In this document: in pieces, positions 1-21,271 of the stretch
Layout: each line of letters starts with the position of its first letter
How positions within the stretch are numbered: the first letter of the stretch is position 1
NCBI RefSeq assembly: GCF_004010195.1
Contig: NC_057719.1
Location: forward strand, 15,868,844-15,890,114
Direction of reading: 5' to 3'
DNA: 21,271 bases
Origin: Chiloscyllium plagiosum
Taxonomy: Eukaryota
Translations under genes and position numbers: made by a program
Notes under the pieces: model-generated
Seen by the model: only the letters and a program-made list of their open reading frames with translations
Told to the model about the DNA's origin: nothing
Database searches by the model: none

Positions 1-618
1 TCCACCTGAGTGACAACCTTCAAAGATCTATGTACATAGACCCCAAGATCCCTCTGTTCCTCCACCTGACTAAGAACCCTACCATTAACCCTGTATTCCG
101 CATACTTATTTGTTCTTCCAAAATGGACAACCTCACACGTGGCAGGGTTGAACTCCATCTGCCACTCCTCAGCCCAACTCTGCATCATATCTAAGTCCCT
201 CTGCAGCCGACAACAGCCCTCCTCACTGTCCACAACTCCACCTATCTTCGTATCATCTGCAAATTTACTGACCCACCCTTCGACTCCCTCATCTAAGTCA
301 TTAATAAAAATTACAAACAGCAGAGGACCCAGAACTGATCCCTGCGGAACTCCACTTGTAACTGGGCTCCAGGCTGAATATTTACCATCTACCACCACTC
401 TCCGACTTCGACCAGTTAGCCAGTTTTCTATCCAATTGGCCAAATTTCCCTCTATCCCATGCCTCCTGACTTTCCGCATAAGCCTACCATGGGGAACCTT
501 ATCAAATGCCTTACTAAAATCCATGTACACTACATCCACCGCTCTTCCCTCATCCACATGCTTGGTCACCTCCTCGAAGAATTCAATAAGACTTGTAAGG
601 CAAGACCTACCCTCCACA
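1..618 (-). mobile_element. CR1-clade LINE ORF2 reverse transcriptase fragment, frame open across the visible part
   Basis: Hand translation of the minus strand gives ...SCLTSLIEFFEEVT...VDVVYMDFSKAFDKVPH...SGVPQGSVLGPLLFVIFINDLD...SKFADDTK...WQMEFNPATCEVVHFG...QRDLGVYV with no stop. It is bounded by the gap and the window edge. The + strand ORFs at 139 and 459 are its antisense shadows. Confidence 0.95.
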
Positions 619-917
619 NNNNNNNNNNNNNNNNNNNNNNNNNNNNNNNNNNNNNNNNNNNNNNNNNNNNNNNNNNNNNNNNNNNNNNNNNNNNNNNNNN
701 NNNNNNNNNNNNNNNNNNNNNNNNNNNNNNNNNNNNNNNNNNNNNNNNNNNNNNNNNNNNNNNNNNNNNNNNNNNNNNNNNNNNNNNNNNNNNNNNNNNN
801 NNNNNNNNNNNNNNNNNNNNNNNNNNNNNNNNNNNNNNNNNNNNNNNNNNNNNNNNNNNNNNNNNNNNNNNNNNNNNNNNNNNNNNNNNNNNNNNNNNNN
901 NNNNNNNNNNNNNNNNN
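619..917. other. Assembly gap (299 N)
   Basis: Run of N. Confidence 1.
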
Positions 918-1757
918 TAAAGGTGGATAAATCCCCAGGACCTGATCAGGTGTACCCTAGAACTCTCTGGGTAGCTAGAGAAGTGATTGCTGGGCGTCTT
1001 GCTGAGATATTTGTAACATCGATAGTCACAGGTGAGGTGCCGGAAGACTGGAGGTTGGCTAATGTTGTGCCACTGTTTAAGAAGAGTGGTAAGAACAAGC
1101 CAGGGAACTATACACCAGTGAGCCTGACGTTGGTGGAGGGCAAGTTTTTGGAGGGAATCCTGAGGGACAGGATGTACATGTATTTGGAAAGGCAAGGACT
1201 GATTAGGTATAGTCAACATGGCTTTGTGCATGGGAAATCATGTCTCACAAACTTGATTGAGTTTTTGAAAAAGTAACAAAGAGGATTGATGAGGGCAGAG
1301 TGGTAGATGACATCTATATGGACTTCAAAAAGGCGTTCGACAAGGTTCCCCATGGGAGACTGGTTAGCAAGTTTAGATCTCATGGAATACAGGAGAACTC
1401 GCCATTTGGATACAGAACTGGCTCAAGGGTAAAAGACAGAGGGTGTTGGTGCGGGTTGTTTTCAGACTGGAGGCCTGTGACCAGTGGATTGCCACAAGGA
1501 TCGGTGCTGGGTCCTCTATTTTTTGTGATTTACATAAATGATTTGGATGCGAGCATAAGAGGTACAGTTAGTAAATTTGCAGATGACACCAAAATTGGAG
1601 ATGTAGTGGACAATGAAGAAGGTTAACTCAGATTACAACAGGATCTTGATCAGATGGGCCAGTAGGCCGAGAAGTGGCAGATGGAGTTTAATTCAGATAA
1701 ATGCGAGGTGCTGCATTTTGGGAAAGCAAATCTTAGCAGGACTTACACACTTAATGG
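918..1757 (+). mobile_element. CR1-clade LINE ORF2 RT fragment, degenerate (5' part of a copy split by the MULE)
   Basis: ORFs 923-1276 (KSPGPD, VPEDWRLANVVPLFKK, NYTPVSLT, SQHGF) and 1300-1626 (YMDFKKAFDKVPH, PQGSVLGP, FADDTK), with frameshifts and stops. Similarity ends at about 1757. Confidence 0.95.
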
Positions 1758-2465
1758 AAGGACATTTGTAAAGTTTGAATGGTGACCTGGTGAAACAAAT
1801 TAATGAACATTCGCATGCAGCTTCGACATCTAAGGTGGAAAGAGATACCGTCATTTCAAAGATAAAAGTACGAGCTGCTGAAACTGTAGAGGGAACTTTC
1901 CAAGTGATTAACGAGTGCCTAGAAAATTTGTCGGAAGCTTGCCAAGGAACGATGCCTAACAACAGAGCGCTGAAGAAAATGGTTAATAGGACAAGGAAAG
2001 AATTTGCTGCTTACCCAGTAAATCCAAGAACTTGTAATTCCAGATAGCTTTAAAACATATTCTGTTAATGAATATAATGAGGGACAATTTTTACTCGCCG
2101 ATAGCGGTAGCACCACCTGCAGAATTCTTATATTTGGAAGAAAAAGGAATGCCGAGTTTCTGAAACAGTCAAAAAAGTTATATGTTGATAGAACATTCAA
2201 AATTTCCCCACCTGTATTTTCACAAGTTTATGTTATTTTAGGGGAAATACATAAAGGTGTGTTCCCACTGTTGTATGCTTTACTCCCAAATAGGTTATGA
2301 TCAACATATGATAAATTATTTGAAAAGGTTCTGGAAATACAGCCCTAATGCCACCCTGACATTATCAAGTGTGACTTTGAACTTGCAAATTTCAAAAGTT
2401 TACAGCAGCATTTTCCTTCTGCAGACATCCGGGGATATTTTTTCACCTGACTCAAAATATGAGAA

Positions 2466-2575
2466 CAGCGCAGCAGGTCAGGCAGCATCCAGGGAACAGG
2501 ATGCTGCCTGACCTGCTGCGCTGTTCCAGCAACACATTTTCTCTGATCTCCAGCACCTGCAGACCTCACTTTCTC
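2466..2575 (+). mobile_element. Short PLE-terminus-derived insertion with hairpin, inside the MULE transposase
   Basis: Perfect 15-bp TSD CTCAAAATATGAGAA at 2451-2465 and 2576-2590. Perfect 28-bp inverted repeat at 2463-2490 / 2499-2526. Same family as the repeats at 16342 and 16951. Confidence 0.88.
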
Positions 2576-3494
2576 CTCAAAATATGAGAAAACATTCTGC
2601 CAGTTTGGGACACTTGAGTAAGTATAACATTGACTCGGAGTTTTCCTTGAGAGCTAAAATGAGAATTGGACTTGCATTTATTCCGATTGAAAACACTGAT
2701 GAAGCTATTGAACATTTGGCTGATGTGCTTCCAGATAAACTGCAACCGCTGCTGGACTAGTTCGAGGATAACTATGTAGGTAGAAGATTATGCAGAGGAA
2801 ATGGTCGGCATCCACCGCTTTTTCCAGTTGGAATGTGGAATTTATATGAAAGAACTTTAAACAATGAGGACAGAACAAACAATCATACAGAAGCTGCCCA
2901 CAGGAGATTACAATGCAAACTTGGAGTGGAACATCCAGTTATTTGGAAATTTATTGACAATTTACAAAAAGTTCAGAGAGGAAGGGACATTTACTATGAG
3001 CATCTCGTAGCAAGGCACGATATTCCGTTGAAATTAAAGAAATTCAGGGAAGCAGACACTAGAATACAAACACTCGTAAGAAGATTTAGTGAGAGAAAAT
3101 ATATTGAGTATTTACGAGGGATTACCCATAATTTTGAATAAATGTCATATTTTAGATTTTTTGTAATTAACTAATTTCTTTTTTTTCCTTTTTAACATTT
3201 TTATTAAAGAGAATAAACATTATTTTTAATTCTATGTAAACATAATAAAATTTTTCTTAAATGAACATTTTTATTAACCATTTGGGCATTATTAGTGATT
3301 TGCATTTTTTCCTTATATATACTCTCTGTCATAATATTAGTTCTTTTATTTACTTATTTTGCTTATATTTAAATTTAAATTTATAATATTTTCAACTTTG
3401 AAAGTCTCTCTGAATTGTCCCTAATAGTGTATTATCAACTCCCATCTTGCTTTCATTAATGCTTTTAACTAAGCCTGAAAAGAATAAATATGAG

Positions 3495-3606
3495 CTGTGC
3501 CGAAATAGTTCTGCGCCTAAATGGCTCTGCGGCAAAATGGGCTGCGCCAAACAGGCCATGCCAAATCACTCGTGCCAAAATTGCTGCGCCTAAAGGTCCT
3601 AAATCC
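3495..3606 (+). repeat. Subterminal ~15-nt periodic repeats, the putative right end of the MULE
   Basis: About 7 copies of a TGYGCCNAAA-like core (tgtgccgaaat, tgcgcctaaat, tgcggcaaaat, tgcgccaaaca, catgccaaatc, cgtgccaaaat, tgcgcctaaag) immediately before CR1 sequence resumes at 3607. Confidence 0.7.
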
Positions 3607-3756
3607 TTTGGATGGGTATATGAATAGGAAGAGTTTGGCGGGATATGAGCCGACTGCTGGCAGGTGGGACTAGATTGGGTTGGGATATCTGGTCAGCACG
3701 GACGGGTTGGACCGAAGGGTCTGTTCCCATGCTGTTCATCCCTATGACTCTATGAC
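3607..3756 (+). mobile_element. CR1 LINE 3' end and tail
   Basis: ...GGGTTGGACCGAAGGGTCTGTT... 3' UTR motif with a CTATGACT repeat tail. It nearly matches the tail at 16808-16891. Confidence 0.88.
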
Positions 3757-5926
3757 ATCATTTTTTAGATAGTAGCACACCAGGATACATCTAGATTTTT
3801 CTTCCTTGTATGCTTTCTGATACAATTTGTACAGTTTCTAATCTTTCTGCTGTAACTCCGTTAACTTTTCTGAACTAAAGATGACTGATCTGTCATCTGT
3901 TTGCTCCTGCTTTGTGTCGACCATTTGATCAAACAGGGTCTCTGCGAATTCCACTTCAACCTTCTTATCTGTACTCTTTGATCTCTCCTGTTTCAACTGA
4001 TGACTTTGTGACCTCGTTAGGGCAAGTCAGGAAAAATCCCAGCATGTGCGCCCTTTAATTGTTCAGTTGCCTGAGTTTCCATTGGTTTTTCAACCACAGT
4101 TGGCAGCACTCCTATTTATGAACCAGCTATTTCGTTAGCAAGGACAAATTGTATTCTTGGAGCAGAGAGTTTCTCCAGTACTCCTATCACAACTTCTCCA
4201 CTCTTCACCGGATATTCTGACCTCACTGTACATAATTGGGCACTTCTTGTCTCACTGTGAATTCCAATTACTAGCACTATTTCTGGCCATACTCCTTCTG
4301 ACGTACGTATGTACTCCTCTATTAACAGCAAAGATTGAGAGGATCCTGTATCTCTTAATATTGTAACCTCTTTATGTGCTGCTCCTGGCCTATGCGAATA
4401 AACTATACTTTCGCAGGTATATGGTTTAAGAAGATCTGGGACTTCCTCCTTAACCAACCTCTGACCAGGTTGTGCATTCTGGTGCAGCATTTTAGCCTCC
4501 ACTGTGCTTTCCATTACCATTCCAAGAAAATTCGCAGACATCCTATTTTCCTACATCTGACTTCCCAGTGCCTTCTGTAATGCACCAAAACTGTGATTTC
4601 ACATGGTCTACTTTATTGCAGTGAAAACACCGGAGCTTTTTAACTTCTCTTTCCCCTTCAAAGGTAAGTGGTAAGTTATCTTATGATCTTCACCAAGATC
4701 TACCTTTCCCTTACCATCTGATGATTTCTCTTTTACCCAATTTACCCTCATGGATTGAAATTGATTTTGGAAGCCAAACTTTGATTTATGGACTAACTCA
4801 TAGTCATCAGCCATTTCAGCTGCTAATCTTGCAGTTTTACTCTCTGTTTTTCCACGTGAGTTCTCATTACTTCAAGAAGTGAATTTTTGAACTCCTCCCA
4901 ATAATCGTCTCTCTAAGAGCGTCATAGGTTTGTCCTATTTTTCATGCCCCTATCCACCTATTAAAATTACATTGTTTGATCCTTTCAAACTCAGTGTAGG
5001 TTTGACCAAGGTCCCTCCTTAGATTCCTGAAATGCTGCCTGTAGGCTTCTGGCACAAGATGATATGCACTTAAGATGACTTTCATCACCACCTCATACAC
5101 CCCAGATATCTCCTGTGGTAGTGATGCAAATACCTCACTATCTCTACTTGCAAGCTTTGTTTGGATCAACAAAACCCACATGGTCACTGGCCTCCACATT
5201 TGTTTAGCCACCTTCTTAAATGAGATGAAAAAGGCTTCTACATCATTCTCATCAGATTTAAGCAATGCATGAATATATTTAAACAGCTTCTCACCAGGCC
5301 TTTGGTTACCATGAGTTTGCTCATCCTCACTCTCTTCAGCTTAAGAAGATGGGGATGAAGACTGAAGGTAAGTTTAGTGATGAATTTCCTGTCTAAGTGC
5401 CAATATCTGAAGTTCAAACTCCCTCTCTTCCTTTCCTCTCTCTCTCTTTCCCTTTGCTAAAGTGATCTGTACTTTTTCTCTTTCCTCTGTTTTTAATTGT
5501 AATTCAGTTTCATTTCCTTTGCCTTTTCCTTGTCTTTTGCCTCTAACTCAAGCTGCTTCATTTCAATTGAATTTTAGCCATCTCTAAAGATTCTGATGGC
5601 ATTTCCAGCAAATTTAAATGTAGAGCTATTGCTGTAATTATCCCTCCTTTCTTCATGGAAGGAGGCAGCTCCAACCCCAGCTTGTCAGTTAATTCCAGCA
5701 GTTTAGCCTTAATTACCTTTTGTAAAGCCTCCAAAGTCACTTCTTCCATCCCCAGAAAACTCTTAGTGACTGAAAGAGCAATTACTACACCAATCACTGT
5801 TTAAAACAACCTTAATCAACATCCAGAATAAAAAAACACTGACACCTACCACTCGCTGCCTTCAAATCCAACAACCCTAATCCCAAATTGGAATTATAGA
5901 ACAAATCCTGCAAAGAGCCCCCAGTC
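3757..5926 (-). mobile_element. Gypsy (Gmr1-like) LTR retrotransposon internal region: gag with SCAN-like capsid and Zn knuckle, protease, probable start of integrase; degenerate
   Basis: ORF 4942-5265 (VEAFFISF...ILSAYHLVPEAYRQHFRNLRR...TYTEF) is SCAN/capsid-like. A CFHCNKVDH knuckle lies at about 4600-4630. ORF 4116-4541 has the protease motif ILRDTGSSQSL. CYYLKND lies at about 3757-3780. There are multiple stops and frameshifts. Confidence 0.85.
5905..5923 (-). other. Primer binding site of the Gypsy element, tRNA-Pro type (degenerate)
   Basis: The minus strand reads TGGGGGCTCTTTGCAGGAT, 3 nt after the LTR end. The canonical tRNA-Pro PBS is TGGGGGCTCGTCCGGGAT. Confidence 0.8.
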
Positions 5927-6517
5927 TGTTATGGACCAGGCCAGACCCCCTCAAAACATTTCAAGAAAGTATCCTGGACCCTAACCTTTCTAGTTGTTTT
6001 AAGCAAATGTAAAATGGGTATTCCAGGAGTGATATAGCTGGTCAAAAACCTTGTTTTAAATAAAACAATTTATTTACAGAGTACTGAATGAAACACAAAC
6101 AAAAGATAACAGAACAACTTAACCTATCCAAAAGCCCAACATACTATCCCAACTTAATGATGCTGTTCCAAATTCCTGCAACAATCCTCATAAACACCCC
6201 TTGACAAATAAGGTAAAATCAAACACAGGGTCTTACAGGAGAGAGAGCTGTCAGAGAGATTCAGCATGGAACACCTTCTTCCATGTAGCTGTTTCTTTTG
6301 GATTCTCACCTAACAACGGACAGCTTGCTAAAACCAAACCAAACCAGAGAAAAACCGAGTTGGGAGAACTGACCACTCCCTTTTCACTGTACAGGTGTTT
6401 ATTTAAAAACGTAAAAGCTTTTTCAAGTAGACAAGCCTAGACATTTCAGAATCTATGCATTTACGACCTCTCTGAAAAAACCCAAGGACAACCTAACTTT
6501 GTTAAAGAAGCATCACA
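5927..6517 (-). repeat. 5' LTR of the Gypsy element (about 591 bp)
   Basis: On the minus strand it has TGTGA...TAACA termini, directly followed by the PBS and gag. The 6517 boundary is inferred from the TG...CA rule only. Confidence 0.75.
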
Positions 6518-6785
6518 CTGGCCTCTAACACCATGGGCCATTATTAAATACTTGAGATTGTTAACTACCTTTTAACTGGGCTGCTATCCCTTTAAGAAAC
6601 TAACTGTCAAAACAGCACTTATGTAAAATTGCATGAATGAATTACATTGCATATAAAGAGGCTATTGTAAAAACAGTATTTCAGGATTCTATTGCTGCCT
6701 CAAACTTGTACTACTGCTATTGCTGAATAAAGAGGCTATTTTCACCACTCACCAATTTCGGTCGTTGTTTGAACACAATCCCAAA
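6518..6785 (+). repeat. ERV 5' LTR, 3' portion (upstream part displaced by the Gypsy element)
   Basis: 6652-6783 aligns without gaps to 15017-15148 (about 28 mismatches in 132 nt by hand count). TATAAA at 6652 and AATAAA at 6726. The assignment of 6518-6559 is uncertain. Confidence 0.85.
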
Positions 6786-6788
6786 ACT

Positions 6789-6806
6789 TGGCATAGTTGG
6801 CAGGAT
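6789..6806 (+). other. ERV primer binding site, tRNA-Ser
   Basis: TGGCATAGTTGGCAGGAT matches the complement of the tRNA-Ser 3' end (TGGCGTAGTCGGCAGGAT) with two CpG-decay substitutions. It sits 3 nt after the LTR end. Confidence 0.9.
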
Positions 6807-6841
6807 AGCTGGAGACACTGTCTCAACTGACAATTCTTTGA

Positions 6842-6849
6842 GGGTAAGA
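6842..6849 (+). promoter_or_regulatory. Putative retroviral major splice donor
   Basis: GG|GTAAGA about 37 nt downstream of the PBS, the usual position in retroviral leaders. Supported by motif and position only. Confidence 0.45.
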
Positions 6850-6916
6850 AGCTTCCTTCTTAAAGTCGTGATCTAGTCCCTGAACAAATCCTGAACCTTT
6901 CATAAGTTGGCCATTT

Positions 6917-8091
6917 AGAACATAGAACATGGAACATAGAAAAGTACAGCACAGAACAGGCCCTTTGGCCCATGATCTTGTACCGAGGATTAATCCTAAT
7001 GTAAAATATAGTAACTTAACCTACGCACCCCTCAACTCACTGCTATCCATGTGCATGTCCATCAGTCGCTTAAATGTCCCTAATGACTCTGCTTCCATGC
7101 ATTCACAACTCTCTGCGTAAAGAACCTTCCTCTGACGTCCCCTCTATACCTTTCTCCTAATATTTTAAAACTATGACCCCTCGTGTCAGTAGGTCCTGCT
7201 CTGGGGAAATGTTTCTGGCTATTGACTCTATCCATACCTCTCATTACCTTGTATACCTCGATCAGGTCACCTCTCTTCCTTCTTCTCTCCAGAGAGAAAA
7301 GTCTGAGCTTAGTCAACCTCTATTCATAAGGCAAGCCCTCCAGGCCAGGCAGCGTCCTGGTAAACCTTCTTTGCTCCCTCTCCAAAGCCTCTGTATCTTT
7401 CCTATAGTAGAGTGACCAGAACTGGACAAGATTCCAAGTGTGGTCTCACCAGAGACTTATAGAGCTGTACCAAAACCTCGCAGCTCTTAAACTCGATCCC
7501 CCTGTTAATGAAAGCCAAAGCGCCATATGCTTTCTTAACAACTCTATCCACTTGGGTGGCAACTTTGAGGGATCTATGTACTTGAACACCAAGATCCCTC
7601 TGTACCTCCACACTGCCAAGAATCCTGTCTTTAATCCTATATTCAGCATTCGAGTTCGACCTTCCAAAATGCATCACTTCGCATTTATCCAGGTTGAACT
7701 CCACCTGCCATTTCTCAGCCCAGCTCTGAATTCTGTCTATGTCGTGCTGCAGTCTACAGTAGTCCTCGATACTATCAACGGCACCACCAATCTTTGTGTC
7801 ATCTGCAAATTTACTAACCCACCCCTCAACCTCCTCATCCAAGTCATTTATAAAAACTACAAAGAGCAGAGGCCCAAGAACAGAGTTCTGCGGGGCCCTA
7901 CCTACCACTGACCTCCAGGCAGAATACTTTCCATCTACAACCACTAATGCCTTCTATCAGCCAACCAATTCTGAATCCAGATAGCTAAGTCTCCCTGTAT
8001 CCCATACCTCCTGACTTTATGAATGAGCCTACCATGGGGATCCTTATCAAATGCCTTGCTGAAATCCATATACACCACATCCACTGCTCGA
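6917..8091 (-). mobile_element. 5'-truncated CR1 LINE inserted in the ERV leader
   Basis: ORF 7402-7944 (PQNSVLGP, FADDTK, YKSLVRPHLE) and ORF 7080-7316 (LFSLERRRKRGDLIEVYK, FFTQRVVNAW). (CATAGAA)n tail at 6917-6945. Possible 5-bp TSD CATTT at 6912 and 8092. Confidence 0.95.
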
Positions 8092-8407
8092 CATTTGTTC
8101 AAATTCCCCCGCATCTTGACCTCAAATCTGCTAACATAGCCTTCAACAGGAAATTGCTTGTGACGTGTGAATTAGGGTGATCATGAGTGACCTTGGGAAA
8201 CTGCTTACGCCCTCCAAAGTGGGATGGTCCCTCCTGACATAACTAAGGAAGAAATGCTACAGAATTACCTTGAGGTACAGTTATCGTTAAGGAAGACCCT
8301 AACCAAAATCAGGCAGTAGTATAATAGTAGCATCAAGGACAATGGACTCTAGATGATATGAGATGGGTCTGGGGAAAACCACCAGACAGAAACATAAAGA
8401 CAGAATT

Positions 8408-9342
8408 CTAGATGTAGATTTGCTCACTGATCTGGAAAGTTTGTTTTCAAATGTTTTGTCACCATACTAGGTAACATCATCAGTGAGCCTCCAGATGAAG
8501 CACTAGTGGTATGGCCCACTTTCTATTCATGTGTTTGGGTTTTCTTAGGTGATTTTGCCATTTCCTGTGGTGACATCATTTCCTGTTCTTTTTTTCATAC
8601 AGTGGTAAATGGGATCCAAGCCAGTGTGTTTGTTGATAGAGTTCTGATTGGAATGCCATGCTCCTAGGAATTCTCATGCATGTCTCTGTTTGGCTTTTTG
8701 TCTGTATGTAAGGATATTAGTGAGAGTGTGTCATGTCTTTTTGTGGCTCATAGTGTTTGTTACAGTTCTTGCAAGGTATTTTGTAAATTACATTAGTTTT
8801 ACTTTTTGTCCTTATAGGGTCTTTCAAGTTCAAGCTGCTGTTTGTGTGTTTTGTGGGTTTGTGGGCTACCAGGATGCCAAGTGGTCTGAGTAATCTGGCA
8901 GTCATTTACGAGATGTCTTTGATGTAGGGGAGAGTGGCTAGGGTTTCTGGATGCGTTTGTCTGCTTGTTTGGGTTTATTGCTAAGAAGTCATTGGACTGT
9001 GTTCATTGGGTACCCATTCTGTTTGAATATACTGTATAGGTGATTTTCCTCTGCTCTTTGTAGTTCCTCTATGTTGCTCATTGAAATAATGTCCGAATCC
9101 ACCTGAATTTGTGAGTTCCCCATTGGCTGTTTACTCTACTGTGACATCTAGGATGACAATTTGTTGTTGTTTTCCTCCTCTTTAGTGAATTTTATGCCAG
9201 TAAGGATATTAATAATGGTCTTAAAGGTTTCTTCTAATTAGTTTCGTTTAGCGGATCCAAAATTTGGGTTGGATGGTTGGCAGAGCAGTCTGCATTACTG
9301 CCTCTGCTAAGAACCCTAATATTGGAGATCCCAAGGGTGTTC
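8408..9342 (-). mobile_element. Penelope-like element, 5'-truncated and degenerate (RT C-terminus plus GIY-YIG)
   Basis: The minus strand gives TPLGSPILGFLAEAVMQ (about 9290-9342) and KTNVIYKIPCKNCNKHY (ORF 8717-8905). A decayed hammerhead motif lies at about 8445-8486. Boundaries are approximate. Confidence 0.85.
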
Positions 9343-10440
9343 TGTGCCTCGTCCATGAGGTAGTCAGAGGTGCTCTTGAAGAACATGAGGAGGAGCTACA
9401 AACTATCTGGACAGCAATAAATTAGTGGTTACAGGGGTCTAGTCCACATAAGACCAATTGAACAAAAGTAACAGTTTGCTGTTAAAAATCCGTAGAAGAA
9501 ATCCCAGAATATGAGGAAAGGTTTAGGATGACCTGAAAATAATATGCAGGATCCCAAATGTGCAGAATGACAAGGATTTTGAAGATTGTGATTACGGCCC
9601 ACTGCTTTTGTGGTTGGATTTAAAACTGAGCTCACTAAAATTTTAAAGCTAACCAAACCAGACTGGGACCAGAGGGGGACTAATTACTATGACTTGGTGG
9701 ACCAAGCCCACTAGTTTGACAGGAATTTGGCTGCCAAACTGCAAGTGGTACAGATAGAACAAATGGAACAGACCCCTCAGTAACCCTGAGAAGACCAAAG
9801 ACAAACGCCAAGGGAAATGTTACATCTGTGGGAAGGAAGGCCACTGAACCAGGAGGTGCTGGCAAAAGGGAAAAGTTTCCGAATAAACAATGGGGAAGAG
9901 GAGACCCCAGAAACTGGGAGTAAGACAAATCTCCTCAAACGATTTGAAAAACTAATCATCCAGCAGCAGCAGGAGCTGCTGAAGTTGACAAAATCTGAAA
10001 GAGCCCACCCTATGCCCCTTACACTCCTACTGGCTTCATGCCAGCAGAGAGGAGATAGACTGTATGTTACCATGAGGACGAGCGACCCGGACATTGAATG
10101 CCTTTTGGACACGAGCAGAATTGATATGCCTACCCAAGAAGTATGAGATCAAACTCCTGCTAAACTGGACAGTGAGAACAATGTACGGAGCAGGAGTTGC
10201 GAGAATCAAAATTAAAAGGACCAACCCCATACACATTGAATTTGGTCCCAAATGAGTTCATAAGCTTTACATGACTAGGACCTGTTGCCTAACTGATCCT
10301 CAAAATGGATTTCCTCACCCAACTGAATTCATCTTTACATTTCAGTGATGGACAGGTAACGTGGTCCGTCAGAACCCTACAAAGAGAAGAATTAAAAGAT
10401 CACCCCAAATTGACTAAAAACAAGGATGACCGTGCGTTAC
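9343..10440 (+). pseudogene. ERV gag C-terminal region and protease remnants
   Basis: ORF 9817-10146 contains IECLLDTS (aspartic protease LLDTG-like, D at 10108). LILKMDFL (ILGxDFL-like) follows at about 10293-10316. The gag call rests mostly on position between the PBS and the protease; 8092-8407 is probably also leader/gag. Confidence 0.6.
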
Positions 10441-11567: not shown

Positions 11568-11686
11568 CTGAGAGATATTGTAGGTCCTTTCACTAATCCA
11601 CTCACAAGCGCTTTATATTTACACATTCATAACTCCTTTACTAACGCACTTCATAACACCGCTTCAAAGCTTCCTATTATAACACG

Positions 11687-13552
11687 TTAAAAATCACACA
11701 ACACCAGATTATAGTCCAACAGGTTTAATTGGAAGCATTAGCCTTCAGAGCACTGCTCCTTCATCAGGTGGCTGTGGAGTATAAGATTGTAAGACACAGA
11801 ATTTTTAGCAAAAATTTACAGTGTGATGTAATTGAAAATATATATTGAAAAATACCTGGATTATTTGTTAAGTCTTTCATCTTTTAGAATGACCATGTTG
11901 GTTTCAGTTCTTTCATATGTAAATTGAAACATTTTTTAAAAAAGTTACATTCTCAAGTGAACTTTAACAATTGGTGTCTGTCAGCCCAGATAATGTATTG
12001 AAGGTGTGAGCTTCCCTGTGTGATACTGTCTGTGCCACAATGTTGAAAAAAGGAATCTTACATGGATTCATGCGCAAAGTAAAATGTAACTCTGCAAGTA
12101 CAAATTCACCCCACAAGTGTGTGTGTGTGTGTACATAGTGCAATGAAGTCACATGTAGTGTGACACGAACCCAAGGTCCCGGTTGAGGCCATCCCTATGG
12201 GTAACGAACTTGACTATCAGCCTCTGCTCGGCCACTTTTCATTGCTGCCTACCCTGATGTAGGATAGTCACCCGAAGGTCCGATGTCAAATGTGCCAGAC
12301 TACTGAAGTGTTTTCTGAGTGGGAGGGAACACTCCTGTCTGTTGATTGTTGTGCGGTGCCCATTCATCCATTGCCATAGTCTGTACTCAGTCTCACCAAT
12401 GTACCATGCCTCAGGACATCCTTGCCTGCAGCATATGAGATAGACAACATTGGCTGAGTCATATGAGTACCTGCCACGTATATGGTGGGAGGTGTCCTCA
12501 CATGTAATGGTGGTATCCATATCCACACTCTTACACATTTTGCAACATCTACCATGACAGGGTTGTGTGGAGTTGTCCTGAAAGCTGGGCAGTTTGCTAC
12601 GAACAATGATCTGTTTGAGGCTTGGTAGTTGTTTAAAGGCGAGTAGTGGAGGTGTGGGGAAGGTCTTGGTGAGGTGCTCATCCTCATTGATAATGTGTTG
12701 CAGGCTGCGTAGAACATGGCATAGTTTTTCGGCTCCTTGGAAGTATTGGACAATTAAGGGTACCCTGTTGATTGCAGCTCATATCTGTCTCCTGAGGAGG
12801 TCATTATGGTTCCTTGCTGTAGCACATCAGAACTGATGTTCGATGAGTTAAGCATCGTACCCGTTCTTATGAGGGCATCCTTGAATACTTCTAGGTGCCC
12901 GTCATGATCCTCCTCATCTGAACAGATCCTGTGTATATGCGTAGAGCTGCTGGAGATGTGCAGCATCGTGAGGTTATCTGTGGGTTTGCGGTAGAGTGAG
13001 GTGCTGAGGTGCCCATCCTTGAGGGAGATGTATGTGTCCAAGAATGAGACACATAGAGAGTAGTCCATGATGACTTTGATGATGGGATGAACCTCATTTA
13101 TCAGTGACTCCAGAGGAAGAAAATGTGTTAATGTACCTAGTGTATAGTGTTGGTTGGAGGTCCTGTGGAGAGAAGAAGTCTTGTTCGAACCTATGCATGA
13201 AAATGTTGGCATATTGGGGTGCAAAGTTTGTCCCCGTGGCTGTTCTATGTGTCTGGATGAAGAAGTGGTTGTCAAAGGTGAAGGCGTTGTGATTGAGGAT
13301 AAAGCGGATGAGTTGTAGGACAGTGCTTGGAGATTGGCAGTTATTGCCATTGAGTACTGAGGCTGTTGCCACGATGCCGTCATTGTGGGGGAGGCTGGTG
13401 TAGAGTGCAGAAACATTCATTGTGACGAGGAATATTCCCATTTTGACTGGTCCGTGGGTGCTGAGTTTCTGTAAGAAATCTGTCGTGTTGCAACAGAAGC
13501 TGAGGATCCCCTGTACAATGGGTTTTAAGATGCATTCGACATAGCACGTCCA
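11687..13552 (-). mobile_element. Penelope-like element, 5'-truncated (RT plus GIY-YIG endonuclease, frameshifted)
   Basis: ORF 13094-13579 (MNVSALYTSLPH, GTNFAPQYANIFM, YTRYIN), SFLD/LYRKPTD (ORF 12754-13416), and GIY-YIG NVVYLICC..C..WYIGET (ORF 12239-12538). (GT)n at about 12116-12132. TSD TATTATAACA(C/T)G at 11675-11686 and 13553-13564. Confidence 0.93.
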
Positions 13553-14198
13553 TATTATAACATGGTTCCATTCATTCATAAAACCATGGTTCTGTAGTAT
13601 ATTTTACTACAACAAGATAGGCCAAATTAAAACAATCCTTACAACTCATTACCAATCAAAACAACCCTTTCAACCCATTACTGCTTTCTCATACCTTCCA
13701 TCCTTATCAACCCTTGCTCCACTAAAGATTATAATATTAATCAGCCAACTGTCTATCATGCATGAATAGATTACAGAACACCAAACAGTTTCACCAATTA
13801 GTATGTACTTGTTAAATACCTTTTAACTGGGCCGCTATCCCTTTAAGAAAATAACAGTCAAATCAGTGCTTATATAAAATCGCATGAATGAATGAAACTC
13901 GCACTGGCGAATAGGTATAAATCTTACAACCTAGCTGCAGTAATCAGTTTAATATCCTTTATCCTTTTATTAAGTACAGATATAATTTCTAACTTATTTA
14001 GAGCATATAGGCCTAGTACTTTTACTAACATTTACTAACTTAAAAGACAAAATGACTAACACTTCTTAATTATGCAAGCAGACCAGACAGATAGTCTTAA
14101 TCCCATCAGTGGTAACAGCCACCATTTAAGTAATGTCTTCCCCAGGACAAAAGTCCCTCAAACCTTTGTGTTCCATAGATAAAATAATGTAATATCAT

Positions 14199-14970
14199 TG
14201 TTGTGGTTCTGTTCGCCGAGCTGGGAATTTGTGTTGCAGACGTTTCGTCCCCTGTCTAGGTGACATCCTCAGTGCTTGGGAGCCTCCTGTGAAGCGCTTC
14301 TGTGATCTTTCCTCCAGCATTTGTAGTGGTTTGAATCTGCTGCTTCTGGTTGTCAGTTCCAGCTGTCCGCTGCAGTGGTCGGTATATTGGGTCCAGGTCG
14401 ATGTGCTTATTGATTGAATCTGTGGATGAGTGCCATGCCTGGCTGTTCTCTATGTTTGGCTTGTCCTATAATAGTACCGTTGTCCCAGTCGAATTCATGT
14501 TGCTTGTCATCTGCGTGTGTGGCTACTAAGGATAGCTGGTCGTGTCGTTTCGTGGCTAGTTGGTGTTCATGGATACGGATCGTTAGCTGTCTTCCTGTTT
14601 GTCCTATGTAGTGTTTTGTGCAGTCCTTGCATGGGATAGCGACCAGCTATTATAGGACAAGCCAAACAGAGAACCGCCAGGGAATTCCCAGAGGCATGGC
14701 ACTCATCCACAGATTCAATCAATACGCACATCGACCTGGACCCAATATACCGACCACTGCAGTGGACAGCTGGAACTGACAACCGGAAGCGGCAGATTCA
14801 AACCACTACAAATGCCGGAGGAAAGATCACAGAAGAGCTTCACAGGAGGCTCCCAAGCACTGAGGATGTCACCTAGACAGGGGACAAAACGTCTGCAACA
14901 CAAATTCCCAGCTCGGCGAACAGAACCACAACAACGAGCACCTGAGCTACAAATCTTCTCTCAGACTTTG
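14199..14970. mobile_element. Penelope-like element 3' ends joined head-to-head (large inverted repeat)
   Basis: The minus arm (14199 to about 14634) encodes PCKDCTKHYIGQTGRQLTIRIHEHQ (GIY-YIG). The plus arm runs from about 14635 to 14970. The arms are near-identical over about 280 bp (mirror ORFs 14229+ and 14715-). Perfect 13-bp TSD AATGTAATATCAT at 14186-14198 and 14971-14983. Confidence 0.93.
14236..14275 (-). ncRNA. Minimal type I hammerhead ribozyme motif, intact core
   Basis: GCA-CUGAGGA-U-GUCACCU(AGAC)AGGGGAC-GAAAC-GUC-UGC: 3-bp stem I, stem II hairpin, palindromic ACGU stem III and GUC triplet. The mirror copy at 14857-14896 (+) has GAAA changed to AAAA. Confidence 0.8.
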
Positions 14971-15309
14971 AATGTAATATCATAGTGATGGAATTTTAAA
15001 ATATAGAACACCTGTGTATAAAGAGGCTACTGTAAGATCTGTATTTTGGGATTCTGCTGCCACCTCGAACTTACGCTACTGTGGTTGCTGAATAAAGAAG
15101 CTATTTTTGCCACTCTCTGACTTTGGCCCTTATTTGAACACAATCCCACAGTACTCTTTCAGCTTATTCTTTAATTAAGGTAAAATTGACTGATACAACC
15201 CATCCTTATCATGACAAAAGTCTGAAGCTATTTTAATTTTACAAAGCTAACACTTAAATGTATAACTGCCCCATGGAAAAATTTTCTTTATCCTTGCACT
15301 CACCCAATT

Positions 15310-15610: not shown

Positions 15611-16341
15611 TGTAAGGGACCTTTGGTTTTGACTGGTTGCATTCTTGAAAATCTTAAAGATTTTGATGGGTGTTTTCCTACTTTAATTCTAAAATCTCAC
15701 TGGAAGAATTGCAGAATCCATAAAGGAATTGCATAATTGGCTGTTTACACCATTTCTCTGCAGTTCTGAACATTTTACATTGATTTTGTAGTAGCAGATC
15801 TAGCAAGTTCGTGTGATCTTTGATAATATCTCTATTTACATTTTACCTGCAAAATTTACTTGCAATTTTGGCATAACTTTGTGTCACCTAGTCCATTATC
15901 CATTTTGGTATCCACATTTAAAATGGAGATTGCCTGAGTTAATTGTATATGTACAATTTGGAACTGTAAGACCTAAACTTCTGATTTATTTCTCCTAGCC
16001 TGGACGTCAGATTGAATACTACAGAAGCAAGCTTTTGCCTTTAAAACAACAGACTTTATCAAAGGTGTGTAGATCTTAGAATTTGAAAATTAATATTATT
16101 ACTTGTGTGCGGTTTGGCGAGTAAGGGATAATGTAAATCAAACAGATGTAATTAATAATGTAATTATGAGTTGAACAGAACACTCAGAGCAAGTCTAAAA
16201 TGGAGACTGCGAGAAATTGTAATCTACAATAGTCTGTAATAACATATTTAGTGTAAATATAAGGTTGGAATTACTTCACCATGATTATGTCCAGATTCTG
16301 GAAGGGTACAGCATATAAACCCAGCCTGTAGAACCTACAAA

Positions 16342-17178
16342 GGAGAAAATGAGGAATGCAGATGCTGGAAATCAGAATTGAAAAGTGTGGCGCTGGAAAA
16401 ACACAGCAGGTCAGGCAGCACCCAAGGTGCAGGAAAGTTGCCGTTTCAGGCATAAACCCTTCATCAGAAATATAAGAGGAGAAAACTCCATCTGCCACTC
16501 CTCAGCCCAGTGTGTGATATTACCACCACCTCACCTTCCCTGTTTAATTTTACAATACCCTCCCCATCTCCAGGAGGCCTGCACACTCCGGCCTTGATTT
16601 TCACAAAGACCCTGAGCTTGGTTTGCCTTGTGTGGTTAGGGGAAGGAGGAACAGATTGCAGACACAGTCAGTGGGGTGGGGAGGCTAGACAGTAATCAGC
16701 TGCCTGGTATCATTTCATGGTTTTAGGAAGAGGGCAGTCACACATGAGAATTGGGTAATACTGATCGGTGCTTTGTGGGCTTTCTCTGTCTCTGGTGTTC
16801 AATAATATGGGTTGGGATATCTGGTCAGCATGGATGGGTTGGACCGAAGGGTCTGTTTCCATGCTGTATATCTCTATGACTCTATGACTCTAAGAACCTC
16901 TTAAAGGTGGGATTCCTTTGAAGAGGCTTTGCAGTAAGGTTACAATGCCTAGGAGAAAATGAGGACTGCAGATGCTGGAGATCAGTCGAAAAGTGTGGCG
17001 CTGGAAAAGCAGAGTAGACCAGGCAGCATCCAACGAGCAGGAGAGTCGACATTTCAGGCATAAGCCCTTCATCAGGAATGTCACGTTCCTGATGAAGAGC
17101 TTATGCCCGAAATGTCGACTTTCCTGCTCCTCAGATGCTGCCTGACCTGTTGTGCTTTTCCAGTGCCACATTTTTCAA
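16342..17178 (-). mobile_element. Composite non-autonomous PLE-type insertion: hammerhead-bearing direct repeats flanking non-coding cargo, plus an inverted partial copy
   Basis: Direct repeats at 16342-16470 and 16952-17079, inverted partial copy at 17086-17178. The whole unit is flanked by a 16-bp TSD, CTGTAGAACCTA(C/T)AAA, at 16326-16341 and 17179-17194. Confidence 0.8.
16808..16891 (+). mobile_element. CR1 3' tail fragment inside the composite
   Basis: TGGGTTGGGATATCTGGTCAGCATGGATGGGTTGGACCGAAGGGTCTGTTTCCATGCTG...(CTATGACT)2 matches 3676-3756. Confidence 0.88.
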
Positions 17179-17204
17179 CTGTAGAACCTATAAAATCCTC
17201 CTCA

Positions 17205-17630
17205 TAATGCCTGGGAGATTGTGCCAAAATTGGGAGAATTGTCCCACAAATTAGCTCAGCAACACCTGACTTGGTAAATTCACAGAATTATACCTTACAG
17301 ACAATGCCTTAGAAATCACCTCCATCTTCCCTGGGTATGTCCTGTCTCACCAGCAAGATAGACCCATCAGAGGTAGCAGCATGGCAGTATACAGTGAGAC
17401 TCCTCAATGTTATTATGGGTACTCATGTACATCTCATGGCATTGACTCAAACATGAGTTGCTGATTACCACCTACAGCCCCTATGCTGCCCTACCACAAT
17501 GTTGCCACCACCCCCAAGCTGGTGAATTAGTAAACCAAATAAACACCAAATGGAAAAAATACATATTGCACTGTGAGTGAGGAACTTCAGTGTCCATTAA
17601 TAAGAGTGCCTTGGAAGTACCACGACTGAT
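17205..17630 (+). mobile_element. Decayed LINE AP-endonuclease fragment (CR1/L2 group)
   Basis: Frame-broken translation: VPKLGELSHKLAQQH...TELYLTDNA...IFPGYVLSHQQDRPIRGSSMAVYS...LLITTY, resembling the N-terminal TE/GY/DR..RGGG motifs of LINE APE domains. Confidence 0.7.
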
Positions 17631-18332: not shown

Positions 18333-18549
18333 GTTAAAAATCACACAACACCAGGTTATAGTCCAACAGGTTTAATTGGAAGCACTAGCCTTCGGAGCGC
18401 TGCTCCTTCAACAGGTGGTTGTGGAGTACACAATTGGAAGACACAGAATTTATAGCAAAAGTTTACAGTATGATGTAACTGAAATTATACATTGAAAAAT
18501 ACCTTGATTGTTTGTAGAGTCTCTCATCTGTTAGAATGACCATGATATT
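18333..18549 (-). mobile_element. PLE 3'-end fragment (same family as 11687-11900)
   Basis: Colinear with 11686-11900 (GTTAAAAATCACACAACACCAG...TTAGAATGACCATG). It carries a mutated hammerhead at 18384-18417. Confidence 0.88.
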
Positions 18550-18561
18550 TCACTTCTAGGC

Positions 18562-18785
18562 TAAAAATCAACACCAGGTTATCGTCCAACAGGTTTAATT
18601 GGAAGCACACTAGCTTTTGGAGTGTCGCTCCTTCATCAGGTGATAGTAATCGTCAGCTACCACCTGATGAAGGAGCGATGCTCCGAAAGCTAGTGTGCTT
18701 CCAATTAAAACTGTTGGACTATAACCTGGTGTTGTGTGATTTTTGACTTTGTACACCCCAGTTCAACACCGGCATCTCCAAATCA
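18562..18785. mobile_element. Short palindromic PLE-end insertion
   Basis: Minus arm 18562 to about 18645 and plus arm from about 18658 to 18785. 12-bp TSD TCACTTCTAGGC at 18550-18561 and 18786-18797. Confidence 0.88.
18661..18695 (+). ncRNA. Minimal hammerhead ribozyme motif, intact core
   Basis: CAC-CUGAUGA-A-GGAGC(GAU)GCUCC-GAAAG-CUA-GUG, with palindromic AGCU stem III and a CUA triplet. Confidence 0.78.
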
Positions 18786-19280
18786 TCACTTCTAGGCAGC
18801 TTGCTTGAATATGTTCAAACAACAATGCTTTGAGGAATGCAAACACTAGTAGATAACTTGTTAGTTTGCTATGAGTGGTAATTCTAATACTTATTAGAGA
18901 CAAGATCCTCCAGAGATTCCATGGAGGCATCACAAAATGCAGAGTAAAAGCACACCTTTTGGTATGATGGCCTGCAAACAACCATAAAAAATATTATTAC
19001 AGAATGATATGATTAAGCCACAGATAGTATAATAGCAACTGAACCTTTGATGCCATCAACCCTTCCAGCTAGATCTTAATTTATTTGACTCCAGAGGGAA
19101 AACGTACATCCTCGTTGTTGGTAATGTTTTTCTTTAGATGGAGTTTAGTAGACTTCATTCCACAACAGCAGATGCTGTGACAAAAACAGAATCTCTTATA
19201 GGTCTGAGCAGCATAGTCTATGGCAGAATTTGTGACAGAATCAGGCCAAAGATCCAGAGAGGTCTATCTGGATCTTTTCT

Positions 19281-19432
19281 CATACAACACCAGGCTATAG
19301 TCCAACAGGTTTATTTGAAGTCACAAGCTTTCGGAGCGCTACTCCTTCATCAGGTGAAGTGACTTCACTTGACGAAGGGGCAGCGCTCAAATAAATCTGT
19401 TGGACTATAACCTGGTGTAGTGTGACTTCTGA
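19281..19432. mobile_element. Short palindromic PLE-end insertion
   Basis: ACACCAGGCTATAGTCCAACAG...CTTCATCAGGTGAAGT is followed by its inverted, internally deleted copy ACTTCACTTGACGAAG...CTGTTGGACTATAACCTGGTGT. No clear TSD. Confidence 0.82.
19322..19356 (-). ncRNA. Minimal hammerhead ribozyme motif, intact core
   Basis: CAC-CUGAUGA-A-GGAGU(AGC)GCUCC-GAAAG-CUU-GUG. Confidence 0.72.
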
Positions 19433-21144: not shown

Positions 21145-21271
21145 AGGTAAAAACAATGACTGCAGATGCTGGAAACCAGATTCTGGATCAGTGGTGCTGG
21201 AAGAGCACAGCAATTCAGGCAGCATCCGAGGACAGGCAAAATCGACGTTTCGGGCAAAAGCCCTTCATCAG
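21145..21271 (-). mobile_element. PLE terminal repeat running off the window edge
   Basis: Homologous to 16342-16470 and 16952-17079 (ACTGCAGATGCTGGAA...GGTGCTGGAA...CAGGCAGCATCC...GCCCTTCATCAG). Confidence 0.85.
21242..21271 (-). ncRNA. Minimal hammerhead ribozyme motif, intact core (5' strand of stem I lies outside the window)
   Basis: CUGAUGA-A-GGGC(UUUU)GCCC-GAAAC-GUC-GA. Confidence 0.72.

Follow-up and report, generated by a model that had tools for sequence, protein, structure and literature searches.

Penelope-like elements (PLEs) of the EN+ type leave insertions with a standard layout, described as a partial tandem, an adjacent inverted 5'-truncated copy and a one-sided tail of 30-40 bp (PMC8557442). 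Minimal hammerheads, including opposite-strand pairs, have been described in pLTRs and are reported to cleave poorly in vitro, and the same source gives the canonical type I hammerhead a helix I of 6 bp (PMC4209133). The active PLE of Anolis (Poseidon), presented in its report as the only one studied in vitro, has an ORF that starts at hammerhead stem II and an internal reverse transcriptase (RT) start at +111-118, and both strands of its target are cut and extended; hammerhead mutants of this element insert normally, cleavage being dispensable in vitro (PMC11167929). Capture of foreign sequence between pLTRs by Penelope elements was described in the rotifer Adineta vaga by Arkhipova et al. 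in 2013 (PMC3846280), an account repeated in a review (PMC6431247). Hammerheads also delimit the retrozymes, and in non-LTR retrozymes canonical hammerheads are reported in tandem repeats (PMC7229834). One preprint (10.64898/2026.07.22.740005) takes consecutive tandem units with complete hammerheads as the retrozyme criterion, proposes that animal retrozymes are PLE derivatives, and reports them in one chondrichthyan genome; the definition of LTR retrozymes used below is also taken from it. With regard to chimeras between LINEs and other sequences, twin priming is described as shown for L1, and chimeras of L2 and RTE as arising by template switching only (PMC4476161). Our search of the literature found no shark-specific description of such a locus, nor its sequence motifs in print.

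The locus considered here lies in a 21,271-nucleotide stretch of Chiloscyllium plagiosum DNA, the whole of which is referred to as the window. An original prediction, made from the letters of the window, had read it as a retrozyme-like composite, in which hammerhead-bearing direct repeats carry captured non-coding cargo and were inserted as one unit. Our analysis suggests that the anatomy is largely as predicted and the interpretation partly right, and that the phenomenon is one already known. The features of the locus are as follows.

16326..16341, no strand: left target-site duplication (TSD) of 16 bp, matching 17179-17194 at 15 of 16 letters, with a sharp end
16342..16473, minus strand: repeat B, a PLE-type end repeat; its 5' edge can be placed anywhere within 16470-16473 and its 3' end is at 16342
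16440..16467, minus strand: minimal type I hammerhead motif of B, in which a G replaces the conserved U of the cleavage triplet, leaving the core broken
16474..16483, no strand: filler, containing the 7-mer with which repeats A and B also begin
16483..16807, no strand: fragment of a multi-copy repeat, X, whose left 26-27 nt are CR1 RT sequence with its sense on the minus strand
16808..16892, plus strand: 5'-truncated CR1-type 3' end with short terminal repeats, and with an orientation opposite to that of the CR1 piece of X
16893..16950, minus strand: extension of 58 bp lying immediately downstream of repeat A and weakly similar to the sister tails
16951..17081, minus strand: repeat A, a PLE-type end repeat, whose 3' end is +121 from the ATG in the hammerhead
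17048..17075, minus strand: minimal type I hammerhead motif of A, with core letters kept, two G-U wobbles and a stem I of 2 bp
17083..17178, plus strand: partial copy of the repeat in inverted orientation, placed head to head with A and carrying a third hammerhead motif
17179..17194, no strand: right TSD, whose junction is bridged by one organism C record

The outer boundaries bear out the prediction of a single 16-bp TSD, with one mismatch, around the whole 837 bp. The two 16-mers agree at 15 of 16 letters and their match ends exactly at both element edges; the chance of such a match is about 2e-8 at one fixed pair and 8e-6 when 10 bases of slack are allowed on each side. Neither direct repeat has a TSD of its own, the whole unit being bracketed by the one. 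The prediction had named a 16-bp repeat belonging to the element consensus as a result that would speak against it, and this is ruled out by a sister copy of the same family at 2447-2592, which has its own, different duplication (14 of 15 letters, at 2452/2577). Because the 15/16 match is sharp, the sister copy has a different duplication and two other hammerhead-bearing families show duplications of 12 and 16 bp, the evidence supports a true TSD and an outer unit that entered as one PLE-type insertion. The right flank (17192-17391) is a lower-copy repeat with a summed depth of 175-9,800, placing the target site beside or within an older repeat.

The two direct repeats (16342-16470 and 16952-17079) are 85% identical, and the inverted partial repeat (17083/86-17178/81) is 84-85% identical to both, all three lying where they had been predicted. 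Differences among the three arms form a star-like pattern, the counts of private letters over 97 nt being 10, 7 and 8. In addition, the direct repeats have minority letters in common. Both carry an A where 90-94% of the family depth is G (16349 and 16959), and both carry a C at 16391/16999, where the family has T at 74-77% for 16391; for 16999 the figures for T conflict, at 31-38% in contigs and 260/289 in RNA. Such letters fit the descent of A and B from one parent or subfamily, and not from two random resident copies.

Assignment of the repeats to PLEs rests on anatomy and analogy, and on that basis is supported: they are probably PLE-type end repeats with minimal hammerheads. Several features of EN+ PLEs are present, namely a pLTR with a minimal type I hammerhead, an inverted copy beside the upstream repeat and a copy-specific TSD. 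The 3' ends of the repeats, at +121 (A) and +123 (B) nt from an ATG inside the hammerhead core, lie near the internal RT start, by analogy to a different family. At the place of a one-sided PLE tail is the 58-bp extension, considered below. In contigs of three related species, organisms A, B and C, aligned at 82% likeness, the repeat family reaches extreme abundance, and the summed depth over repeat B is very high in all three. Protein searches found no ORF protein for the repeat family, and a tblastn search of 150 PLE-related proteins against the locus returned weak matches only, the best at 26.6 bits.

Sister PLE insertions elsewhere in the window have TSDs of 12-16 bp and inverted arms, and two of them have one-sided tails of ~38 bp. 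A second PLE family (18333-18797) is inserted into its own copy with a 12-bp TSD (18550/18786), head-to-head arms at the hammerhead and a 38-bp tail. A third hammerhead-bearing family (14186-14986) looks young, having 246-bp arms that are 97% complementary, a 16-bp TSD, a ~38-bp tail and a hammerhead with a longer stem II at 14272(-). The sister copy of our own family at 2447-2592 is a fold-back stub, with a TSD of 14-15 bp, that inverts downstream of the hammerhead and hence has no core; its host, which has no Pfam match, we take to be the remnant of a DNA-transposon ORF. The window end cuts through another copy of a sister family (21244-21271), whose minimal hammerhead core is intact. A different family, present as a decayed PLE with ORF fragments on the minus strand (11686-13603), has relatives that carry RT and GIY-YIG domains. 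Elsewhere in the window, a Pfam search of frames matched one of nine (RVT_1 at 7405-7953), a retroelement protein has close relatives in Rhincodon typus and Heptranchias perlo, and broken frames on the minus strand at 4116-5800, without a Pfam match, are presumably the remnant of an LTR-retroelement gag/protease. At ~619-917, 299 N inside a CR1-like copy mark an assembly gap between oppositely oriented CR1 pieces.

A hammerhead had been predicted on the minus strand of each direct repeat. The motifs are there by pattern scan and reading by eye, but Rfam does not match them: all 12 of its matches at E<=1 are microRNA-hairpin models below the gathering score, and none is a hammerhead. Numbered by the standard scheme for the hammerhead core, C3 falls at 17075(-), 16467(-) and 17089(+). 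All three arms have the core, a 4-bp stem II and a palindromic stem III region, the third, in the inverted arm, with a mismatch in stem II. The prediction that the hammerheads are now partly mutated, with a stem I of about 2 bp, agrees with the broken core of B, the wobbles of A and a stem I that reads as 2 bp. When the isolated hammerhead is folded, the minimum-energy fold keeps only stem II and is no better than that of shuffles (z -0.4 to +0.1).

The cleavage sites of the A and B hammerheads lie 608 nt apart, and the DNA reads through both without a break. Cleavage at the two hammerheads would release a linear RNA running from 17047 to 16440, from which 16342-16439, with the inferred start of reverse transcription, and 17048-17081 would both be missing. 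The insert holds both segments, a result that contradicts the predicted template, a linear RNA of about 610 nt cut out between the two hammerheads. Because sequence outside the cleavage interval is present and the cleavage sites are continuous in the DNA, the template was probably either uncut or circular. The description as retrozyme-like does not hold either. With regard to non-LTR retrozymes, the locus has ~1.2 units rather than consecutive tandem units, the cleavage triplet in the core of B today no longer has its conserved U, and a helix I of 2 bp falls short of the canonical hammerhead. We also considered the plant LTR retrozyme, which has a type III hammerhead in its LTRs and a 4-bp TSD, and rejected it, given the type I motif and 16-bp TSD found here.

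Within the repeats, the prediction had seen a mosaic of 26 nt of CR1 followed by about 300 bp of unassigned sequence. The identity of the 26 nt to CR1 RT sequence at 151-176 stands, but starts at 16484 and not at 16486, and the mosaic itself gives way to another arrangement: in contigs of organisms A, B and C, the interval from 16483 to 16775 or 16807, including the 26-nt CR1 piece, is one continuous multi-copy repeat, here called X. Summed depth over 16542-16741 is 6,500-78,000, compared with 4-89 over the unique left flank, a difference of ~1000-fold, summed depth over X not being a copy number. X accounts for 17 of the 24 pieces listed among 426,224, at 10-17% difference. No piece of X from the locus itself is among those listed. 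Within these listed matches, 16482-16484 is the starting point of 8 of the 17 X pieces, while the end lies at 16775 in seven and at 16807 in one, and none of the 17 enters repeat B, any PLE repeat or the CR1 tail; six plus-strand X records, again among the matches listed, run on for 66-230 unlike letters. X found no match in protein searches, a tRNA search or Rfam, and no tRNA was found anywhere in the window. An Atlas protein search, run to name X or confirm the extension, found nothing. X may be a chimeric non-autonomous CR1 derivative common to organisms A, B and C.

To the right of X, the predicted CR1 3' tail at 16808-16891 was recovered, with 16808-16888 being 93% like 3676-3756; upstream of 16808, the family sequence of this tail continues differently in the contigs. 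The CR1 label of 16808-16892 is carried over from the original prediction, and is one that we assume. A 4-bp word at 16480-16483 is repeated at 16893-16896, flanking the block formed by X and the CR1 tail, at a chance level of 3.7%. Beyond the block, 16893-16950, left unnamed in the prediction, may be PLE sequence, either the element's own tail or the start of its ORF. Compared with the 38-bp tails of two sister PLE families, it gives a summed p of 0.003-0.016 in three of four scoring schemes and of 0.16-0.24 in the fourth; the similarity, noticed after the fact, is on the element strand, and the other strand scores lower. Presumably, the downstream sequence of the PLE family reads on across the X and CR1 block. 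A 13-bp hairpin occupies 16893-16935 (z -2.1 for 16890-16955).

The filler at 16474-16483 resembles the end of the TSD joined to the start of the element. Its score of 9 is reached by 0.035% of 20,000 random 12-mers with the right TSD copy, and by 2% of random 12-mers with the left copy. The filler could be either the distal end of the PLE extension, separated from the rest by a nested insertion, or an aborted restart. A similar resemblance at 16893-16906 (4/1000 with the right copy, 44/1000 with the left) was post hoc and was not used. Joints between the CR1 tail and the repeat start were also set aside: they occur in at least 11 rows, with 5-21 contigs each, but skip the extension, and we regard them as chance neighbours of two abundant families.

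Which events assembled these parts is a separate question, and we put about even confidence in an ordinary PLE partial tandem that later received, inside its tail, a 413-bp chimeric insertion made by CR1. A Penelope-like element would have nicked an AT-rich site and, with an uncut RNA as template, started reverse transcription ~120 nt downstream of the hammerhead, copying as far as the front edge of the hammerhead to give repeat B. The RT would then have passed onto a template with ~70 extra downstream bases, giving the extension and repeat A, and the other target strand would have received the inverted copy. The product, a mini partial tandem, would have measured ~424 bp, bracketed by a 16-bp TSD and with 195 nt between its hammerheads, the distance that remains between those of A and B once the X and CR1 block is taken out. 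Later, CR1 machinery would have placed the 413-bp chimera in the extension with a 4-bp duplication, the chimera consisting of an inverted piece of X and a CR1 3' end, fused through twin priming or a template switch. We infer the template steps, the identity of the extension, and the nested event and its order.

For nesting speak the TSDs of 12-16 bp, inverted arms and, in two cases, one-sided tails of the sister insertions, as well as the multi-copy nature of X together with the absence, among the 17 listed X pieces, of any that enters repeat B or the CR1 tail. The block has a CR1 piece at either end, the two oppositely oriented, an arrangement also found in LINE chimeras formed by twin priming or template switching (PMC4476161), the 4-bp word flanks the block, and the extension resembles the sister tails on the expected strand. 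Against it, the 4-bp duplication stands at the 3.7% chance level, and the tail similarity is weak, post hoc and gone under one of the four scoring schemes. Furthermore, the extension (58 bp plus ~10 bp) is longer than the 38-bp sister tails, the filler is also like the TSD end and element start, which would suit a restart during the PLE event, and arms and block show no age difference.

The absence of an age difference counts in favor of another possible, less probable, reading, that the whole 837 bp was copied in one event by the PLE RT from an uncut RNA. The cargo would have been captured either by read-through of a parent locus in which A, B and the block were already present, or by template jumps that led from B into X, then into the CR1 end and finally into A, and the reading includes the case in which the nested CR1 event had happened in the parent copy. 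One TSD for the whole, with none for either repeat, would follow from this, the filler resembles the left junction, and the divergences of arms and cargo are of similar size. However, none of the 17 X pieces among the matches listed joins a PLE repeat or the CR1 tail, two unrelated resident copies would be hard to reconcile with the minority letters common to A and B, the version by jumps needs three switches, and both the opposite CR1 pieces at the two ends of the block and the 4-bp word are left unexplained. The captured host or other-TE cargo of the original prediction is therefore possible, and capture is a known phenomenon (PMC3846280), but later nesting explains the cargo at least as well. 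Events at the level of DNA, in which a resident short PLE (a repeat and an inverted arm under one TSD) acquired the block and the second repeat, whether through recombination with a circular DNA or through repair of a break from an ectopic donor, are improbable. They would account for one TSD and two direct repeats without RNA, and the extreme abundance of the repeat family suits them, but a random incoming copy would not be expected to have minority letters in common with the resident, and the star-like arm differences give no sign of a chimeric crossover.

A circular template is a further reading, for which the spacing of the cleavage sites, 608 nt, speaks. If an RNA cut at both ends to 608 nt had been ligated and the PLE RT had gone round it ~1.2 times, A and B would have been equal at birth, as their common minority letters would allow, and animal retrozymes, proposed to derive from PLEs, are known in one chondrichthyan (preprint 10.64898/2026.07.22.740005). 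A circular template, however, is endless, whereas A terminates at the hammerhead's front edge, as do B and the palindromic insertions at 18569-18734 and 19280-19432. Moreover, stem I is 2 bp, minimal hammerheads are reported to be poor cleavers in vitro (PMC4209133), PLE insertion in vitro can do without cleavage (PMC11167929), and no second unit or sister copy is present among the pieces listed (24 of 426,224). We consider it quite unlikely that rolling-circle copying took place, and just as unlikely that the 837 bp is the footprint of a 608-nt RNA circle that carried foreign repeat, with sister copies under other TSDs. Least probable of all, and scarcely credible, are the linear-RNA model taken literally and independent insertions with a chance flanking match. 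Hammerhead motifs in both repeats speak for the former, but it is already contradicted by the boundaries, where sequence beyond the cleavage interval is present on both sides; the latter would need the TSD to have arisen with a chance of 8e-6 or less.

The outer junctions are carried by relatives B and C, whose flanks differ by 1-5%. One organism C record bridges the right junction, reaching 45 letters inside the element, and three further records, from B and C, extend 27-28 letters into it, against a bridging rule of 31 letters. As the outer junctions are common to B and C, the insertion is older than these species. No empty-site joint was found among the joints listed (15 of 2,592), and no locus with the PLE but without the X and CR1 block among the pieces listed (24 of 426,224). 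Arms and cargo have diverged to a similar extent, with no sign of the block being younger. In one polyA single-cell RNA run, of which 2% was read, depth over 16542-16791 was 0-0.8, in a library type that would miss circles; of 4,709 reads, 98% ran into unlike sequence, 12 matched at >=99%, and there were no pile-ups of starts or ends. A search for family loci in metagenome collections gave six matches of 20-24 nt only, with no further similarity, viral collections gave one 20-nt match only, and prokaryote genomes gave none. The insertion is old and decayed and, in the nested reading, a fixed fossil without a function of its own.

If the nested reading is right, the locus is one fixed fossil among very many PLE stubs, and its lesson is a warning that what looks like cargo between hammerheads can be a later nested insertion. 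Capture, if true, would add a shark example of the process shown in rotifers in 2013. Only the circle would bear on the role of PLE hammerheads and on the origin of animal retrozymes, as a genomic record linking cleavage by minimal hammerheads to the shuffling of cargo and to the birth of a retrozyme in a vertebrate. In both leading readings, nested insertion and capture, the template would have passed the hammerheads uncut, in agreement with the behavior of the Anolis PLE in vitro (PMC11167929).

Compared with known systems, the locus is closest to the complex insertions of EN+ PLEs (PMC8557442) and to Anolis Poseidon (PMC11167929), with the same arms, TSD, 3' ends at ~120 nt and uncut hammerheads. 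It differs from these in that the extension is ~58-70 bp and interrupted. With animal non-LTR retrozymes (PMC7229834; preprint 10.64898/2026.07.22.740005) it has in common non-coding sequence, type I hammerheads at unit ends and PLE-related repeats. However, it has no full-unit tandem, one core is broken and the hammerhead is minimal rather than canonical. The inner block is similar to the LINE chimeras (PMC4476161), in which a truncated LINE 3' end is fused to other sequence, sometimes in opposite orientation. In that account the chimeras are of L1 with snRNAs, and of L2 and RTE by template switching, with one CR1 case left unresolved, whereas here repeat X is the partner and no more than 4 bp are duplicated. 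The locus does have one feature of pLTR capture, foreign sequence enclosed by direct pLTRs within a single TSD, and its layout of two direct repeats and one inverted repeat is the same as that of the Adineta vaga capture (PMC3846280). For the rotifer capture, an empty allele is shown together with further members of the gene family, whereas here the cargo is itself derived from repeats and may have arrived later. We file the locus as a PLE insertion and not as a retrozyme, and its membership among true captures is possible.
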